Source of the DNA: a virus
Taxonomy: Duplodnaviria; Caudoviricetes
Length of the DNA stretch: 64,000 bases
IMG/VR virus record: IMGVR_UViG_3300049142_000060
Location: 7,652 to 71,651 of that record
Strand: one strand, 5' to 3'
The position numbers and the translations under genes were made by a program. Below the pieces are notes generated by a model, which saw only the letters and a program-made list of their open reading frames with translations, was not told the DNA's origin and ran no database searches. Shown piece by piece: positions 4,730-51,228 of the stretch (the first letter of the stretch is position 1; each line of letters starts with the position of its first letter).

Positions 4730-7700
4730 GTGGCTGAGTTCCAGGCCGGTCAAGTCGTCGTCCCGGTCATCCCGTCCGCGCAGAACTTCATCAAAGACCT
4801 GAAGAAGCAGGTCATCGCTGGTGCCTACCCGCTGGGGCAGGAGATCGGCAAGGAGATCCAGCGCGGCATCTCCGACCAGATGAAGGGCATCTACGAGCCC
4901 TTCAAGGAGGAGACACAGAAGCAGCGCCGCCAGGCGCCCAAGGACGGCGCCGAGGTAGGTGGCGCATTCGCGACAGGCTTCAAGAAGCGCCTCGAAGCCG
5001 CTCTGAAGACTCTGCCGAAGGTCGAGCTGGACGCTGATGCCAGCCCCGCGCAGAAGCGCGTCCAGGAGCTGCGGACCCAGCTTGCCGCTCTGGCGGACAA
5101 GAAGGTCGGCGTTGACATCGACGCTGAGGCAGCCGTCACCGAACTGCGCACGATCAAGTCGCAGCTACAGGAGCTGGAGCAGACCGCCGACATCGCGGTC
5201 CGGGCTGATGTTGGCGCCGCACTAGCCCAGCTCAACACGCTGGATGCGGCAGTGACCAAGCTGGAAGGCGAGACCGCCACTGTCGAAGTGGACGTGGACG
5301 CCGGAGAGGCGGCCACTGAGCTGGCGGCGACCGAGGTCGAAGTAGCCCGCCTTGACGGGCGCACGGCCAACGTCCAGGTTGACGTGGACGCCGCCGGCGC
5401 CTTGGCGCAACTCGGTCTCGTCACCGCGGCTCTGGCGGCTCTACCGGCCGTAGCAGCCGCAGGCTTGGGCGTAGGCGGACTGGCTGGGGCGGCAGCCGTG
5501 GCCGGCGTAGGCATGGGCGCCTTGGCCGCGGTCGCGATCCCCAGCATTACCCGCATCAACGACGCGATGAAGGCCCAGGAGCAGGCGACCAAGGCCGCCC
5601 AGTCGGCCACCGCCAGCGCCGCGGGCACCGCTCAGCAGGCAGCGATCCAGGCCTTGAACATGGCTGCCGCCGAGCAGCGGGTGGTCGACGCCAAGAAGGC
5701 GGCCAAGGATGCTGAGGACGAACTGACGCGCGCCCGGCAGGAGGCGAAGCGGGCCGCCGAAGACCTGAACCGGGCGGTCGCCGCCTCGGCGCTGTCTCAG
5801 GAGGATGCCGCGCTCGCCGTGCGCGAGGCCGAGGCCGAGCTGGATCGGGTCAGGTCCGACCCCAAGGCGACGGATCTGCAGCGGGAGCGCGCAGAGCTGT
5901 CCTACCGGCAGGCCGTGGCCCGCTTGGAGGATGAGCGGGTCCGGACCAAGCGTCTCCAGGACGAGAAGAAGGCCGCGGACAAGGCCGGCATCGACGGGTC
6001 GAAGCAGGTTGTCGCCGCCCGCGACAAGATCGCTCAGGCTAATAAGCGGGTCGAGGACGCCGAACGCCAACTGAAGATCATGCAGCTTCAAGCTGCGGCA
6101 GCGGCCAAGACGGCCTCGGCGGCTCAACGTGGCACGGTCGCCGAGATGGTGAAGTTGTCGCCGGCGGCGGCCACCGCAGCCCGGCAGATCCAGGCGTTCA
6201 AGGACGCCTACCTGGCGTGGCAGCAGAAGCTTGAACCCGCGGTTCTACCAGCGGTGACCGGCGCGCTGAAGGTGCTGCAGGGCCTGTTCAACCCGCTCGC
6301 CCCGGTCATCAAGGGCGTCTCCGGTGCTTTGGTCGGGCTGGAGAAGGACGCATCGAAGGCGCTGGGCGGCAAGTTCTGGACGGACTTCTTCGCCCAGATC
6401 AGCAAGCAGGCACCTGGCGCGGTCACCGGTTTCGGCAAGGCGCTGATGGACGTCGGCACCGGGGTGGCCGGCGTCGTCAAGGCGTTCCTGCCGTTCGTCC
6501 CCACCATCGTGGGCGGCATTCAGAAGATCGCCTCCGGGTTCGCAGCCTGGGGCAAGGGGCTCGGCCAGTCCTCAGCCTTCAAGACCTTCGTGTCGTTCGC
6601 CGCGGCCCAAGTGCCCAAACTGATCGCGCTGTTCAAGAATGTCGGAGCGGCGATCGGCAACATCGTCTCAGCCCTCGCGCCGTTCGGATCAGCCGCCCTA
6701 TCAGGAATCTCGGCCCTGGTTGGCTGGATAGCGAAGCTGAGCCCATCGGCGATCCAGGCCATCGCCATCGCGATCGGCGGGATCGTCCTAGGGGTCAAGG
6801 CGTGGGCGATTGCTCAGCGGGTGCTCAACGTCGTCCTGTCGAAGAACCCGATCGGCCTGATCATCACGGCGATCGGGCTGCTCGTGGCCGGCCTGACGTA
6901 CGCCTACCAGAACAGCGAGACCTTCCGGAACATCGTCGACCAAGCCTTCAAGGTCATCGGTCAGGTAGCGACCTGGCTGTGGACCAATGTGCTCCAGCCG
7001 GTGTTCCAGGCCCTGGTCGCCCTGTGGCAGAACGTGGTCGCCCCCGCGGTGACCTGGCTCTGGCAGACGATCATCAAGCCGGCTTTCGAAGCGATCGGCG
7101 CTGTCATCGCCTGGGCATGGGAGAACGTCATCAAGCCGGCGGTGGCTGCGCTAGTGCTGTACTGGCAAAACATCCTCGCACCGGTGATCACCTGGTTGTG
7201 GCAGAACATCGTCAAGCCGGCGTTCGACGCCATCGGCGCTGTGATCAAGTGGGCGTGGGAGAACCTGATCAAGCCTGCCGTAGCGGCGCTCGTCCTGTAC
7301 TGGAAGGTGGTCCTCGGCCCGGCGATCTCGTGGCTGTGGAACAACGTCGTCAAACCGGCGTGGGACGCCATCTCCAAGGCAGTCAAGTGGGCGTGGGAGA
7401 ACGTCATCAAGCCGGCCGTCGCCGCCCTTGTCCTGTACTGGAAGACCATCCTCGGCCCAGCCATCTCCTGGTTGTGGAACAACGTGGTCAAGCCAGCCTG
7501 GGATGGGATCTCGGCAGGCATCAAAACCGCTTGGGAGAAGGTCATCCAGCCCGCGGTCAAGGCGTTCTGGACCTTCATCAGCGAGACCCTGCCGAACGGT
7601 TTCAAGCGCGGCGTCGAACTGATCGGCAAGTTCTGGGACGGCCTCAAGGAGGTCGCTAGGAAGCCGGTCAACTTCGTGATCGAAACCGTCTACAACGGCG

Positions 7701-22619: not shown

Positions 22620-22843
22620 CACCGGATCGGCGGTAACGGGCGACTTCGGCCCAAGGGCAGTTGGACGACCTCGACGAGGTCGGCGAGATCCACGTATTCG
22701 GCCACCTCGCGAACGCTCGTGGCGTAGACAGTGGTGGACCGGTACATGCCATGGCGGGTGATGCGGAGTACTTGCCTGGGGCCGCGCCCGCGGTCGAGCT
22801 GGATCACCTCGATCTCGATTCCGGGAGCCCGCCACACACTCAC
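22334..22843 (-). CDS. small hypothetical protein (only the first ~70 aa look protein-like; the rest runs antisense to the regulator)
   Basis: MSVWRAPGIEIEVIQLD...QVLRITRHG...YVDLADLVE. Confidence 0.4.
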   Translation of the reverse strand: MSVWRAPGIEIEVIQLDRGRGPRQVLRITRHGMYRSTTVYATSVREVAEYVDLADLVEVVQLPLGRSRPLPPIRCHAVLRPWISMGGGSVRARSRRSRTEAMSASPSAPTRIRSRSRDVDRNRSAGMRSRTSRARAAASPGCTGASAWASTSVAAAQPGVCGTHRAAED

Positions 22844-23009
22844 GAATCGGACAATAGCTCATGAAACGGACAGCGCGAGAGTCTGGTCGGGAGGAGACAG
22901 GCCCCGCAAGCGAGAGCCCCAGGCCGCGGGGAAGCAGCCTGGGGCCCTCGCGCGTACGGCTGCGCGTGGGATGCGCGCGAGCCGCTTTTTGATCTTGGTG
23001 GTGGGTGGC

Positions 23010-23324
23010 TCAGTCCTCGGTGCCGTAGTTCCATGTCTCGCGACCGCGGCGGTCTGACGCGGGCAGACAGTCCGGGTACGTGGCCTTCTTGAGGCATCCC
23101 CTAGCCTGCTTGGCGTTGACGACGATCGTCACGGGCCGCCCCTCGGGCGGATCTACGGTCAGTTCGTGCTCGTCGCGAACGTCGGTGACCCTGCCCGCAG
23201 GTCCGAACGGGGCAAGCCATGCCCTCTTCGACGCCATGGGCCGCGCGTGTGGGGCACTGGACTGAGGTGTACTGCAGGTCGCCGTGGTCGAGGCGAGGAC
23301 GAGGCCGGTAAGCAGGATCTTCAT
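23010..23324 (-). CDS. putative exported/lipoprotein-like protein
   Basis: start moved to MKILLTGLVLASTTATC; the upstream part of the ORF is a repeat array. Confidence 0.45.
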   Translation of the reverse strand: MKILLTGLVLASTTATCSTPQSSAPHARPMASKRAWLAPFGPAGRVTDVRDEHELTVDPPEGRPVTIVVNAKQARGCLKKATYPDCLPASDRRGRETWNYGTED

Positions 23325-23385
23325 GTGGCGCCCTTCGCTGGGGTCGCGGCTGCGCGTGGGAAGCGCGCCGATTGGTTGTGATCTT

Positions 23386-23511
23386 GCTGCCACGGGGTGC
23401 CACGGAGGGGGGCCACACTGCTGCCACGCCGGGGTGCCACAGACCGTGGCACCACTCCTGACCTGTAACCCTCCCCCCAGCCCCCCGCCCGTGGCACCGC
23501 AGGGGTGCCAC
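23386..23511. repeat. clt-like array: 8 copies of 8-bp G(G/C)TGCCAC / GTGGCACC
   Basis: forward copies at 23386, 23396, 23409 (variant), 23420, 23433 and 23504; inverted at 23446 and 23491; ends 4 bp from the traB stop. Confidence 0.75.
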
Positions 23512-23515
23512 GGAA

Positions 23516-25789
23516 TCAAGGAAGCTCAGGCCGTGCCGGCATCAGGTAGCGCTGAGCCTCCTCGTCGTAGCCTCCGAGGACGCCCGCCTCCACGAGCTTC
23601 TTTAGGGTCTTCTGCACCCACGAGCGCGACATGTCCGTGGTCTCCCACAGGGGCTTCAGATCGCCGCTGGAGAAATCCCGGGCGCCGCCGTCCCACAGCT
23701 CTTGCAGACGCTTCATCAGGGCCGCGCCGCGCTCCTCGGGCGTCATCTTCTGCTCCGGGCCGGCGAACGTCAGGGGCGGCTCGCCGTCGTCCAGGTCGGG
23801 GATCTCGTCGTCGATGTCGCCCCGTACGTCTGGATCGGGGTCATCAGTGTTCAGGTACTCGCCGGCCACGTTCTTCACCTCCTCGTCGTCCTCTTCCTCG
23901 TCTTGCCCAGGCGCGTGGATCTCTCCTGTCTCCGGGTCGGCCATCACCATGGCAAGAGCCAGCGGTAGACCACCGACAGGCGTCTTAACCTCACGTGCTT
24001 TCCCGTCCTCGGGCGCTGGCCCGACGATGCCGGCCGACTCCATCACGTCCATGAGCTGTTCAGCCTCCTTGTGGCCGATGCGGAGCTTGCGCTGCAGCAT
24101 CGCCGTTGACCCGAACTGCGTGGTGACGACCAGCTCCACAGCCTGCAGCAGAAGCTCCTGGTCCACGGGCGGACGGTCGGCGACCGCGACAGCCGCGGGG
24201 GAGAGGCGCGACAGCTCAGCAGTGGTCGCATCCACCTCCTTGGCCGCGGCCGGCCACTGGGCGGCGTACTCGCGCATCGCCGCGTTCGCGCGCTCATCGT
24301 CGAACTCTCCCTTGGCGTCGAGTCCCCACGCATAGGTGCGCATCGGCATTGCGATCCTCCCGTCCTCGATTGAGGGCGCGTCGAGGTAAGCCATGCCGGG
24401 TTGGGCGTTGGTCCACAGCTCGGGGCGCGCGCCTGCGTCTTGCTGCCGCTCCGACAGGCCGAAGGAAGCGTCCGCGCTGTTCTCGACGCCGAAGCACATC
24501 TTCGCGAGCTGTCCGCGCGCCAAGGTCGGCATCTGCGTGTAGTCCGAGCGCTGCAACGACATGACGATCGTTCCGCCGGCGGAGCGGATCGCCTTCAGCA
24601 TGGACAGGAACTGCTCCTGCTCCTTGTCGCTCAGGCAGTCGAAGATGTCGGGGAACTCCTCCAGCCAGATCAGCCAGTAGGTGAGCCCGCAGCCGGGCTT
24701 CCACTTGGCCAGGCCCTTGCTCGCCAGGTAGTCGGTGCGTGGTTTCACCTGTGCCTGGAGTTCGGACAGCATCTTCTTGACGCCGGCTGGGGTGGTCTCG
24801 AAGCGGTGTAGTGCCGGGCGGAGCGGCCCCAGCGTCTGTTCGCCCTTGGTGATGTCGCCGGCGAACACGGCGCCGTCGCGGCGGCTGATGAACTCGGCGA
24901 GGTAGTTCCAGGCGCCGCCGAACCCCTTGCCGGCGCCAGTCATGCCCATCATCTGAAGGTGGTGGCCGACGATGATGTATCGGAGTTCGTCGAGGTCCTG
25001 CCACAGCGCCAGGCGGAACGGCTCGGCCACGCTCGCGCCCGGCCGGGAGGGGCCCGGCCAAGGGATGGGCCGCTTCATCACCCGTGGGTCGGAGATGGTG
25101 ACCTTGGCTTTGCTGGCGTCGTCAGGGTCGATGCTCGTGGTGATAGATCCTGGCGGCAGGGGGATGCCGGATTCGACGTAGGCGACCTTCTTCTGCAGGT
25201 CGTCCGCGGTCTGCCGGCCTTGCTCAAGCTGGACTTCGCCCTCGACCTTGTGTGCGGTGGCCTTGGTCGTTCTCGCCTCGATGGCGGGCATGCCGGCTCG
25301 CTCGGCGCCCTGCCCGAACAGGAAGGCGAGCGGGTCGGTGATGGCGCCGGGCTGGTCGAGGCCCTTCATGCGGATGATCGTGCGAATGTTCCAGGTCAGG
25401 GCCATGGTGACGCCGCCGATCAGCACCAGGCGGCCGGTCACGACGGTGGTCGGCCCGTTGACGGTGGCCGCGCACACCCACAGGCCGGCGAGCAGCGTCG
25501 TCAGCGTTGTGTGGGACTTGCCCCACGGGCCGCGGGCGTGCGACTGGCCGAACGTCACCCCAGTCAGCACGAGCACGGCCGCGGCCATGAGGAACATGGT
25601 CCACGCCACCACGTCTGGGTCGTCGCTGTCGAGGATGACGTGGAAGGCGCACCCGATGCCGAACACCAGCACGTACGCCACCCACGGCGACGCCAGAGTG
25701 AGGAGCTTGGACACCTCCTTGGCGGTGACCTTCGACAGGCTCGACTCCGTCTCGACGGATACGAGGTCCTTGGTGCGTCCTGCCATCAC
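23516..25789 (-). CDS. traB: TraB-type FtsK/SpoIIIE conjugative DNA translocase
   Basis: N-terminal TM helices; Walker A GMTGAGKG; Walker B LIWLEE; RSAGGTIVMSLQRSD; FtsK-gamma-like and C-terminal wHTH domains. Confidence 0.85.
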   Translation of the reverse strand: MMAGRTKDLVSVETESSLSKVTAKEVSKLLTLASPWVAYVLVFGIGCAFHVILDSDDPDVVAWTMFLMAAAVLVLTGVTFGQSHARGPWGKSHTTLTTLLAGLWVCAATVNGPTTVVTGRLVLIGGVTMALTWNIRTIIRMKGLDQPGAITDPLAFLFGQGAERAGMPAIEARTTKATAHKVEGEVQLEQGRQTADDLQKKVAYVESGIPLPPGSITTSIDPDDASKAKVTISDPRVMKRPIPWPGPSRPGASVAEPFRLALWQDLDELRYIIVGHHLQMMGMTGAGKGFGGAWNYLAEFISRRDGAVFAGDITKGEQTLGPLRPALHRFETTPAGVKKMLSELQAQVKPRTDYLASKGLAKWKPGCGLTYWLIWLEEFPDIFDCLSDKEQEQFLSMLKAIRSAGGTIVMSLQRSDYTQMPTLARGQLAKMCFGVENSADASFGLSERQQDAGARPELWTNAQPGMAYLDAPSIEDGRIAMPMRTYAWGLDAKGEFDDERANAAMREYAAQWPAAAKEVDATTAELSRLSPAAVAVADRPPVDQELLLQAVELVVTTQFGSTAMLQRKLRIGHKEAEQLMDVMESAGIVGPAPEDGKAREVKTPVGGLPLALAMVMADPETGEIHAPGQDEEEDDEEVKNVAGEYLNTDDPDPDVRGDIDDEIPDLDDGEPPLTFAGPEQKMTPEERGAALMKRLQELWDGGARDFSSGDLKPLWETTDMSRSWVQKTLKKLVEAGVLGGYDEEAQRYLMPARPELP

Positions 25790-26172
25790 ACGTCATCCCA
25801 GTTGAAGTTGGACTTGCGCTTCTCGGGGTTGGCCTTGGGGAGCACGTCCACGAACTCCTTGCGGAACTGGGCGTGGAATTTGACCAACTCGACGCCGGCG
25901 CCCTTCTGGAGCTCAGCGGCCCGCTTGAGTCTCTTGACCACGCGGCGGGCCCTGAGACGAACGTCAGGGGCGCCGAGCAGGGCGAGGATTGGGTGGCCCT
26001 TGAACGAGCGGGTCAGCACCGCGTACAGCTCATCGGAGCCGAGGGCGAACTCCTCGCCCAGATCTCGGCACAGGTTGCGGCCGATGCGGGCGTAGTCGGT
26101 GATGGCGCGCGGACCCTCCCATGGGATGGCCGACAACTCCGGGATACGGGCGCGGCCCTGGGGGTCGGTCAC
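25786..26172 (-). CDS. TraA-like plasmid transfer accessory protein
   Basis: start moved to GTG 26172; directly upstream of and coupled to traB; RLRARRVVKRLKRAAE. Confidence 0.55.
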   Translation of the reverse strand: MTDPQGRARIPELSAIPWEGPRAITDYARIGRNLCRDLGEEFALGSDELYAVLTRSFKGHPILALLGAPDVRLRARRVVKRLKRAAELQKGAGVELVKFHAQFRKEFVDVLPKANPEKRKSNFNWDDV

Positions 26173-26405
26173 AGCTCCTCCTTCCACGTCTCGCGGACGA
26201 CTTCGACGAACCGCCGGCTGCCGTAGGCGATGCGCGGCACCCCCAGGACGGAGGTCGCCAGCGCGTCGGCCGCGCCGAGCAGAAGCACGAGAACATGGCC
26301 GAGCATGGCCAGCGCGACCACCAGGCCGATGGCAGCGTCGGCGAGCAGACGGCGCGCCCGCCGGCGGAGCCCTCGACGGTCGACGTAGATGTGTGTGGTC
26401 TTCAT
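26169..26405 (-). CDS. small membrane protein in transfer operon
   Basis: 78 aa hydrophobic; coupled overlaps. Confidence 0.5.
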   Translation of the reverse strand: MKTTHIYVDRRGLRRRARRLLADAAIGLVVALAMLGHVLVLLLGAADALATSVLGVPRIAYGSRRFVEVVRETWKEEL

Positions 26406-35931: not shown

Positions 35932-36912
35932 ATGCCTGCCCCCCGCAAAGACCAATCCGCCCCGTTACGGTCACTGCTCGACTCCTGGGCGCTCGCCCTG
36001 GAATCGGCCAACCGCTCTGAGGGCACGGTCGTCTCCTACATGCTCACGGGACGTCGGTTCTGCGACTACCTCGGACATCATTCCATGCCGGACACCGTCG
36101 ATGGGGTACAGGCCGATCACATTCGGCACTTCCTCGTCGCGTGCCTGAACGGCTGTCTCGACGACGATGGCCAGCCGTGCGGGTGCGGCATCAAGGCCCG
36201 CACCGCCGGCAACGCCGCGAAGCACTACCGCAACCTGCGGGCCTACTTCAACTGGCTGATCAAAGAAGAGGAGCGGACGGGCGGGCATCCCATGGTGAAT
36301 GTCGAGCCGCCGAACGTCCCGGACAACCCGCCCGACGTGTTCAGCGACGACGAGCTGCGGGCGCTCCTCAAAGCCTGCTCGGGAGCTACGCTCGCGGACC
36401 GGCGGGACACCGCCATCATCAGGGTCTTCATGGACACCGGCATGCGCGTGTCAGGGCTCACCGGCTTGCGCTACAGCTCCGACCCGAACGCCAGCGACGT
36501 CTTGCTAAAGGACAAGGTGCTCCGCATCCGGATCAAGGGCGGCGACACGATCCTCGTGCCGATCGGCAAGGCCGCGGCGAGGGACCTCGACCGGTACATC
36601 CGAGCGCGGGCCCGGCATCCTGACGCGGACTGTGAGTGGCTGTGGCTCGGCCGGAAGGGGCAGCTCAAGCAGTCGGGTGTCCAGCAGATGCTGGAACGTC
36701 GCGGAAGAGAGGCAGGCGTGGCGAGGGTGCACCCCCACCGGTTCCGGCACACGATGGCGGACGACTGGCTGGAGGCCGGCGGCAACGAGGGCGACCTTAT
36801 GATCATCGCGGGGTGGAAGAGTCCGGAGATGGTCCGCCGGTATGGTCGGGCCGCGGCGGACCGCCGTGCGCGACAGGCTCACGCACGCCTCTCTCCGGGA
36901 GACCGCATCTGA
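35932..36912 (+). CDS. int: tyrosine integrase
   Basis: N-terminal SAM-like domain; DTGMRVS, IKGG, HPHRFRH, AGWKS, VRRY. Confidence 0.92.
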
Positions 36913-44860: not shown

Positions 44861-44894
44861 CCAGCACCAGCACCAGCACCAGCACCAGCACCAG
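44861..44894. repeat. (CCAGCA)5 microsatellite
   Basis: five perfect hexamers plus CCAG directly before the AGGAG RBS. Confidence 0.9.
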
Positions 44895-50211: not shown

Positions 50212-51228
50212 GTGAACGACCAGATGTCCGCAAACGCCGCCCAGACCGACGCTCAGGCGCAGGCAAGGCCCCTGGATGCCCTGAACCATGCGGCGGTCGA
50301 CTGGGCGTGGGCGCAGTCGATCGCGAACAACGCGGGCGCGCGGATTGTGTTGATGTGCCTCGCTCGGCGGGTGGACGACATGTGGGAGTGCACGACCAGC
50401 CAGGAGGAGGTGGCGATGGACGCCATGCTGTCTGTCCGCTCCATTCGCCGGCACCTGGAGCAGTTGGAGGGTGACGGGTTCATCGCCCGGCAGCGTCGGT
50501 TCGACGACAAGGGTCACCGGCTGGCTGATCGGTTGCGCTTGAACCCGGGAGAATCCCTACCGGCCAATCTGTCCGGTAGGGCGATTGCCAAGGGGGCAGA
50601 TTGGCCAGTGGCCAAATTGGCCGCTGGATCTGACCAGCAGAGATCCCTACAGGACAGATTGGCCGGTGGTCAAGTTGACCTGTGGCCAGATTGGCCGGTA
50701 GGGGGGCCGGACGAAACGGACATCCCCAGGTCGCGTCCAGCGGCCAAATTGACCAGTGGCCAAATTGGCCGCGCTATAAGTAGTTCTCCTACGGAGAACT
50801 ACGAGAAGAACACTTCTTCTTCTCCCGAGCGACGCTCAAAGCCGAGGCGTCTCGCCGATGCTCCGCCACGAGAAGACGTCGAGCACCTGTGCGGCCGGCT
50901 TCTCAAGTGGATGCAGCACAACCAGGTGCGCAAGACCCCGGACGCCGTCAGCGAGGCATGGCGTCGAGAAGCCCGGCTCCTGCTCGACAAGGACAAGGTC
51001 CCCTTCGCAGAAGCAACCCAAGTCCTCGACTGGTGCCAGCGGGACGGGTTCTGGAGTCAGAACATCCACTCGATGCCGACCTTCCGCGAGAAGTACGGCC
51101 AGCTCGAAATGAAGTCCCGCGGAGCGCGGGGGGACACCCAAGTCAGGCAACTCCGCCCGACCGGCACCGGCGGCCACCAGCCCTACCAAAACCCCACCGA
51201 CCCGTCCGTCTACCACGAGGACCTGTAG
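50212..51228 (+). CDS. replication initiator (N-terminal HTH)
   Basis: AVDWAW...ARIVLMCLA...SQEEVAMDAMLSVRSIRRHLEQLE..GFIAR; C-terminal FWSQNIHSMPTFREKYGQL. Confidence 0.8.
   Translation: MNDQMSANAAQTDAQAQARPLDALNHAAVDWAWAQSIANNAGARIVLMCLARRVDDMWECTTSQEEVAMDAMLSVRSIRRHLEQLEGDGFIARQRRFDDKGHRLADRLRLNPGESLPANLSGRAIAKGADWPVAKLAAGSDQQRSLQDRLAGGQVDLWPDWPVGGPDETDIPRSRPAAKLTSGQIGRAISSSPTENYEKNTSSSPERRSKPRRLADAPPREDVEHLCGRLLKWMQHNQVRKTPDAVSEAWRREARLLLDKDKVPFAEATQVLDWCQRDGFWSQNIHSMPTFREKYGQLEMKSRGARGDTQVRQLRPTGTGGHQPYQNPTDPSVYHEDL
50562..50825. repeat. origin iterons GGCCARATTGRCC inside the initiator gene
   Basis: full or partial copies at 50597, 50610, 50656, 50668, 50684, 50742 and 50758, then a relatively AT-rich stretch. 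Confidence 0.7.

Follow-up and report, generated by a model that had tools for sequence, protein, structure and literature searches.

A clustered octamer array beside traB in a siphovirus of the Streptosporangiaceae as the probable clt-like site of the adjacent translocase

What reads a cluster of octamers that abuts the stop codon of a traB gene inside a tailed phage genome, and to what end? In TraB-type conjugation, the principal path of gene flow among mycelial actinomycetes, one protein moves the DNA in double-stranded form. To our knowledge, the recognition code of the TraB winged helix is known for very few plasmids, all of them from Streptomyces. We analyzed a 64,000-nucleotide stretch (hereafter the window) of a 71,651-bp virus record, G000, together with related traB loci. 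The comparison suggests, with a probability of about 0.84, that the array is the cognate clt/TRS site of the adjacent TraB.

An octamer array abuts the traB stop codon

The repeats and the neighboring gene are arranged in the window as follows.

23386 to 23511, no strand assigned: octamer array with five direct G(G/C)TGCCAC and one GGGGCCAC on the plus strand and two inverted copies
23433 to 23453, no strand assigned: palindromic pair GGTGCCAC-N5-GTGGCACC, read from the window sequence
23491 to 23511: second pair, everted, read from the window sequence
23516 to 25789, minus strand: traB, encoding a 757-residue FtsK-like double-stranded DNA translocase (ORF and profile match; Walker A GMTGAGKG)

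In the window sequence, GCTGCCAC starts at 23386 and 23420, GGTGCCAC at 23396, 23433 and 23504, and the inverted form GTGGCACC at 23446 and 23491. These seven exact matches to GSTGCCAC, with a single GGGGCCAC at 23409, make eight copies in 126 bp, spaced start to start by 10, 13, 11, 13, 13, 45 and 13 bp. The array ends at 23511 and the traB stop codon occupies 23516-23518, leaving a gap of 4 bp. Both the eight positions and this distance had been claimed in an earlier note on this DNA and were confirmed.

The octamer is clustered far beyond chance. Of the exact GSTGCCAC matches, these 126 bp hold 7 of 15 in the 64-kb window and 7 of 18 in the whole 71,651-bp replicon, and the largest cluster per 126 bp in 300 simulated first-order Markov windows had 3 copies, against 7 observed. 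Outside the array the octamer is at or below expectation (8 matches in the window versus 10.5 expected from shuffles). The genome-wide count that the earlier note had proposed thus found enrichment at the array and did not find the octamer equally dense elsewhere; the strand skew that it had proposed counting was not significant among the 11 replicon copies outside the array (3 plus, 8 minus). When all 8-mers of the window were searched without bias, the top cluster was GGTGCCAC at the array site. Literature searches on GACCCGGA and GGTGCCAC returned no relevant report. The octamer is previously undescribed, and represents a known kind of site in a new host family, the Streptosporangiaceae.

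A KOPS- or SRS-type polarity motif was considered and rejected, there being no dispersal, over-representation, significant skew or excess of octamer pairs in host genomes. In Nonomuraea genomes of 13.8 and 11.8 Mb we counted 4 and 2 paired octamers, of which 3 and 2 lie in the traB array; a reversed-pattern control gave 5 and 5 in the same two genomes. Elsewhere in the window, tandem CCAGCACC-type units occur in 5 copies within 25 bp at 44861-44886, in the early-gene region.

A conserved cassette accompanies traB in related loci

We compared the window with 22 related traB loci, namely five from IMG/VR viral contigs, sixteen genome loci from Nonomuraea, Streptosporangium, Sphaerisporangium and Herbidospora, and one from the N. 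gerenzanensis main replicon; two of the genome loci repeat viral contigs, and gene co-occurrence was counted over the non-redundant set of 20 loci. The N. gerenzanensis sequence NZ_LT559118.1 (L001, PLSDB) is the 11.85-Mb main replicon filed as 'plasmid I' with 10 features, and matches to it are chromosomal, not plasmid-borne. In every one of the 22 loci an unbiased 8-mer search picked out a stretch of at most 220 bp with 5-9 octamers, located 4-830 bp downstream of traB. The arrays fall into three octamer classes.

GGTGCCAC class: most loci, including the window
GGGGCCAC class: L002/L008 and L004/L019
GGTGCAAC class: L006 and L009

The class-defining base is nearly uniform within each array (GGGGCCAC in 9 of 9 copies in L002 and 6 of 6 in L004), which argues for a common reader; in a few arrays, isolated copies belong to another class.

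Alignment across loci placed the octamers within a longer cassette, with the following features in the window.

23347 to 23511, plus strand: whole conserved clt-like cassette, aligned across 21 loci
23349 to 23360, plus strand: conserved left box GCTGCGCGTGGG, invariant with octamer class
23379 to 23386, plus strand: conserved box TGATCTTG directly ahead of the first octamer, from the cassette alignment
23458 to 23469, plus strand: conserved central box CTGACCTGTAAC, one exact copy in the window
23470 to 23490: C-rich tract after the central box, read from the window sequence

In a common-orientation alignment the cassette measures ~165 bp in the window and ~165-230 bp across loci. It opens with the GCTGCGCGTGGG box, a T(T)GATCTTG box and the direct octamer run, and continues with the palindromic pair and its 5-nt spacer, the CTGACCTGTAAC box, the C-rich tract, an inverted copy and a final direct copy. 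Spacings between direct copies in the aligned arrays are mostly 9-14 bp (60 of 80; 57 of 80 are 10-14 bp), the rest lying near multiples. Beyond the 8-mer, information content is at background except for a weak G at -1 and a purine at +9, so the repeat unit is ~8-10 bp. The three non-octamer boxes are unchanged across octamer classes in this alignment, and the TRS model gives no account of them.

The CTGACCTGTAAC box and C-rich tract (23458-23490) are together invariant across the three classes, and their complementary strand has four G-runs; the distant N. gerenzanensis plasmid p1 (L035, ~6040-6060) also has a CTGACCTGT core, in inverted form, within its GGTGTCAC array. The box and tract may be a second cis element. 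At the other end of the cassette, ~45 bp (GGCTGCGCGTGGGA...TTGATCTTG) are duplicated 390 bp apart, at 22957-23000 and 23347-23389. Between the duplicates lies a minus-strand ORF of 104 aa (23010-23324), which has no family match and whose N-terminus resembles a signal or lipoprotein sequence. Of the two copies, the one at 22944-23000 agrees more closely (86%) with the single N. gerenzanensis copy. The 104-aa ORF looks like a small gene inserted with target duplication, or through recombination at the box.

Relative to traB, the cassette occurs in both directions. It is antisense and 4-25 bp from the stop codon in the window, the five viral contigs, L007 and L009, and antisense but 679 bp away in L014; in the remaining genome loci it is sense, 46-830 bp off traB and sometimes past an extra ORF. 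In a partial check, sense-orientation loci carried genes typical of AICEs and plasmids, DUF2637 (Spd-like), SSB and DUF3631. The five IMG/VR contigs (L002-L006) resemble the window in having the antisense cassette 4-5 bp from the stop, and most genome-only loci (within L010-L022) have a sense cassette and these AICE-like neighbors. Cassette orientation may therefore mark a phage-associated lineage.

These arrangements bear on the possibility that TraB binds the array for another purpose, such as autoregulation or termination of traB, or a stop or hand-over in intramycelial spreading. Two perfect 8-bp inverted pairs with 5-nt loops, one of which begins 4 bp past the stop codon, would suit such a role, as would the abutment of the array on the traB stop codon in half of the loci. 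Hairpins, however, leave five phased direct copies unexplained, and we detected no sigma-70-like promoter, T-tract terminator or Rfam family in 22800-23800. In the remaining half, 46-830 bp separate array and traB, the array being in the opposite orientation and sometimes behind an ORF, and this does not fit a fixed role in traB termination. Furthermore, experimentally defined clt loci are laid out in the same way (PMC3583192). We consider any such purpose in place of loading improbable. A separate idea, that the conserved boxes form a fixed promoter, is argued against by the occurrence of both cassette orientations relative to neighboring genes.

TraB combines a divergent translocase with two predicted DNA-binding domains

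The traB product matches the NCBIfam plasmid_TraB profile with E 3.7e-113 over profile positions 8-634 of 639. Its NF041214 score of 379 bits lies below the 800-bit equivalog cutoff, and the protein belongs to a divergent subfamily and is no equivalog of its Streptomyces counterparts. Alignment with TraB proteins of Streptomyces covers residues ~5-526 at 26-31% identity; residues 556-626 are the part that aligns to gamma domains of chromosomal FtsK. In Pfam, FtsK_gamma alone matched (residues 544-601), with no FtsK_SpoIIIE match at E <= 0.01. The closest full-length relative, from Nonomuraea gerenzanensis, is 72-79% identical; it lacks a ~97-residue insertion (about 541-637) present in the window protein and has the last ~120 residues in common with it. 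Among 50,697 sequenced phage records no full-length TraB homolog was found, the matches being to the gamma domain only.

The Ser/Thr of a Walker A motif normally coordinates Mg. In the window protein the motif reads GMTGAGKG (residues 283-290, ~24940-24963 on the minus strand), with Gly in place of the Ser/Thr after Lys. This GKG form is common to the clade of the window (L002/8, L007, L009, L010), whereas other relatives have GKS; a Walker B-like hhhhEE and downstream motifs are conserved. The motor may thus be altered. An earlier description of the locus as a module with both cis and trans parts is supported for the cis array and for the TraB-family ORF, and is qualified on the trans side by the non-canonical Walker A.

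An AlphaFold (AF2) model of residues 505-757, built from a 20-sequence alignment (A1), contains two confident domains.

23966 to 24169, minus strand: coding region of an FtsK gamma domain (residues ~541-608) that, as an insertion, separates the translocase from the terminal wHTH
23534 to 23743, minus strand: coding region for the winged helix at the C-terminus, residues ~683-752, with recognition helix 722-734 and wing 740-749

The gamma domain (Pfam E 1.8e-17) shares ~60% identity with its counterparts in the chromosomal FtsK of Nonomuraea and superposes on KOPS-bound 2ve9 with Z 12.8 and an rmsd of 1.2 Å. The window, L007, L002/8, L009 and L006 have it; the other 15 relatives do not. Because its carriers fall in two separate clades of the translocase body, the domain appears to have been gained twice or recombined. 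The terminal domain is modeled as a1-b1-a2-a3-b2-b3 with pLDDT ~95. Its fold matches are generic only (Fur-family DNA-binding domains and cullin WH-B, Z ~8), and a sequence search of solved structures with the C-terminal 129 residues gave no significant match. It aligns with the C-termini of the pWTY27 and pJV1 TraB proteins, with which it has in common an (S/G/D)R-x-W core that opens the recognition helix.

Octamer class covaries with the C-terminal domain of TraB

Octamer class tracks the phylogeny of the winged helix and departs from that of the translocase body (AU p < 1e-4). The tree built from the body places the two GGGGCCAC lineages far apart, in separate clades, and likewise the two GGTGCAAC lineages, and AU tests on the body alignment rejected trees that unite each class (p 8.6e-5 and 7.1e-5). 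When the tree is built from the C-terminal domain, GGTGCAAC and GGGGCCAC each form a clade, with supports of 100/98 and 90/84. Class-diagnostic positions, each variant class being represented by two independent lineages, are denser in the C-terminal domain.

GGTGCAAC class, diagnostic positions per 100 residues: 1.5 in the body, 15 in the C-terminal domain
GGGGCCAC class, diagnostic positions per 100 residues: 1.1 in the body, 3.3 in the C-terminal domain

Both GGTGCAAC lineages share, among others, the recognition-helix substitutions T728R and V733R and the wing substitution Y748H; both GGGGCCAC lineages have, among others, F706V in b1 and L749A in the wing.

The protein has two candidate DNA readers. 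The same GGTGCCAC arrays are found beside traB genes whose products have no gamma domain, and gamma-bearing proteins occur with all three classes. The likely reader of the array is thus the terminal winged helix; the gamma domain was ruled out as reader by the relatives that retain the array without it.

The C-terminal coding region adjoins the array, and homology between the L006 and L009 cassettes extends from end to end, so a single recombination tract could have moved both array and C-terminal region without any functional link. For this reason the case for co-adaptation rests mainly on the uniformity of class within arrays and on substitutions that fall on DNA-facing elements of the fold.

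The octamers keep company with traB

Apart from traB, which accompanies the array in 20 of 20 loci, one gene is a regular companion.

26169 to 26405, minus strand: gene for a 78-aa single-TM peptide, upstream of traB, the sole regular companion of the array besides traB

This peptide gene is present in 15 of the 20 loci; its product, a TM peptide, was ruled out as reader of the repeats. No other DNA-binding gene co-occurs with the array among the 20 non-redundant loci.

Helically phased short repeats are typical of plasmid centromeres, and the octamers might be operator or centromere-like sites for a different protein, be it a regulator, a ParR-type adaptor or a host factor. Their ~11-13 bp phasing and 5-9 copies do resemble parC-type centromeres, and a gene for an HTH_31/DUF5753 regulator lies 6 kb away. 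That HTH_31 gene, however, occurs in 3 of 20 loci as against 20 of 20 for traB, and no regulator or partition gene co-occurs with the array. A host factor fits poorly with octamer classes that vary between elements within one host genus, and any such protein fits poorly with a class that tracks the C-terminal domain of TraB. We regard a reader other than TraB as very unlikely.

Iterons are likewise short, clustered, phased repeats, and other such arrays do exist in related loci, but a reading of the octamers as replication iterons or recombinase arm sites is hardly credible, given that no cognate initiator gene adjoins them (the O-like initiator, 50212-51228, is 27 kb off and the integrase, 35932-36912, 12 kb off) and that separate, different arrays lie near DUF3631 and replication genes in related loci while the octamers stay with traB.

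Other dense 8-mer arrays were seen at L002 1809-2076, L009 4910-5103, L011 12913-13085, L001 27061-27176 and L021 12501-12690, with the motifs CCGGTCGC/CGCGACCG (7-10 copies), CGGTAACC (8 copies), AGCCGTAA (6 copies) and GTCAACAC (8 copies). The CCGGTCGC/CGCGACCG array sits about 1.2 kb upstream of traB. Those of L011 and L021 are near the far end of the locus, that of L011 adjoining a DUF3631 gene, and these two may be iterons. On a Thermobispora bispora plasmid (L036, 7034-8160) there is an extreme run of CCGGTACC-type repeats, with CGGTACC occurring 87 times in the locus; it extends inside and past an annotated 1.5-kb hypothetical CDS directly downstream of traB and a GGTGTCAC array.

A putative loading site for TraB

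The locus has the features by which clt/TRS sites are recognized. The array lies in cis beside traB (4 bp away in the window and 4-830 bp in the 22 loci) and consists of clustered short (7-9 bp) direct repeats, of a kind often accompanied by inverted copies. The cognate TraB has a modeled C-terminal winged helix whose recognition helix would set specificity, and repeat and specificity domain covary, the two being physically linked. The proposal of a clt-like locus, first made in the earlier note, is thereby supported by the comparison with 22 loci, by the co-segregation of octamer class and by agreement with experimentally defined clt loci in motif length, position and copy number.

We infer that TraB binds at the array, that a hexamer loads there and that the phage genome is transferred. 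The C-terminal winged helix of each TraB subunit would use its recognition helix (722-734) and wing (740-749) to recognize a single 8-bp site. With about one helical turn (~10-14 bp) from each site to the next, a hexamer could dock with several of its subunits next to one another. The TraB ring would then close around double-stranded phage DNA, and the FtsK-like motor would pump that DNA into a neighboring hyphal compartment or recipient.

The putative transfer module resides in a complete phage

The record G000 is a complete siphovirus, a temperate phage of actinomycetes. It carries genes for the large terminase, portal, protease, scaffold and major head protein, and further genes for a tape measure, minor tail proteins, an endolysin, an integrase and an O-like replication initiator, with the traB module located between lysis genes and integrase. 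No nucleotide match to the structural region was found in the phage collection. A second distinct viral contig, G005, is 100 kb long and ~90% complete, has a related terminase (42% identity) and belongs to the GGTGCAAC class. Genes of the Phage_capsid family (HK97-like) were also seen a few kilobases from traB in L011 (10323-11732) and pWTY27 (L033, 5660-7120), AICE- or plasmid-type elements otherwise without phage structural genes.

A broader and rather doubtful scenario, to be taken as a whole, is that siphoviruses of the Streptosporangiaceae captured a module comprising the clt cassette and the 3' end of traB from AICE-like elements and spread through the mycelium as double-stranded DNA without virions, with specificity re-set by joint swaps of winged helix and cassette and with the gamma domain adding a second DNA specificity. 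If this is true, a gamma domain that reads, for example, host polarity motifs would let the prophage mobilize host DNA.

The locus extends the TraB/clt system to the Streptosporangiaceae. It offers a natural specificity series of GGTGCCAC, GGGGCCAC and GGTGCAAC, with GGTGTCAC in distant relatives, and candidate specificity residues (706 and 749; 728, 733 and 748), such that a recognition code is directly testable. The presence of the module within a complete tailed phage and on a second viral contig bears on the exchange of transfer functions between phages and conjugative elements.

Comparison with known systems

FtsK with its gamma domain and KOPS, and SpoIIIE with SRS, resemble the proposed system in that the winged helices of a hexameric double-stranded DNA pump read an 8-bp motif. 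KOPS are dispersed and strand-skewed along the chromosome, whereas the window octamer forms one local cluster. The window TraB contains an FtsK gamma domain, the KOPS reader in FtsK, yet the gamma domain is not the reader of the array.

The TraB of pSVH1 is a hexameric FtsK-like protein in which helix a3 of a C-terminal wHTH reads 8-bp clt repeats, according to papers citing Vogelmann et al. 2011, EMBO J (PMC4447253, PMC4170104, PMC3583192). The TRS concept is the same. The octamer differs, and the window protein has an additional FtsK gamma domain. Chromosomal clt-like clusters are reported for pSVH1, whereas none was found in the two Nonomuraea genomes searched here.

The combination of an actinomycete phage with a transferable replicon is paralleled by pZL12/PhiZL12 of Streptomyces and PhiNon1 of N. 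gerenzanensis (PMC5431353, PMC4487206, PMC3583192), and transfer of pZL12 depends on a major tra gene, as outlined in PMC3583192. The window element differs from pZL12 and PhiNon1 in having an integrase and no recognized par genes.

Distant TraB proteins (~40% identity) of N. gerenzanensis plasmid p1 and the Thermobispora plasmid have GGTGTCAC arrays just downstream of their genes. The clt of pJV1 was recovered by the search used here as nine copies of CCGCACA starting 5 bp after the traB stop codon. As summarized in PMC3583192 from Servin-Gonzalez 1996 and Franco 2003, this clt comprises nine CCGCACA[C/G][C/G] direct repeats, and according to that same summary these are genetically essential for clt function. 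The likeness to the window lies in ~9 short direct repeats that start just after the traB stop codon; pJV1 differs in its unrelated motif and in being a rolling-circle plasmid of Streptomyces.

A close parallel in motif is the clt of pWTY27, where TraA, a TraB-family protein, footprints TGACACC repeats (PMC3583192). This element differs in being a 14-kb Streptomyces theta plasmid whose protein is ~27% identical over the translocase, and in having its own second repeat type, CCCGCCC, and its own inverted repeats; the GCTGCGCGTGGG, TGATCTTG and CTGACCTGTAAC boxes of the window cassette are not visible in the pWTY27 stretch compared. In the pWTY27 sequence and in the published description (PMC3583192) the TGACACC repeat straddles the stop codon of the translocase gene. 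Both systems have 4-5 short repeats with inverted copies in ~175 bp, located across or next to the translocase gene's 3' end, and GGTGTCA, the complement of TGACACC, is one base from the GGTGCCA(C) of the window.
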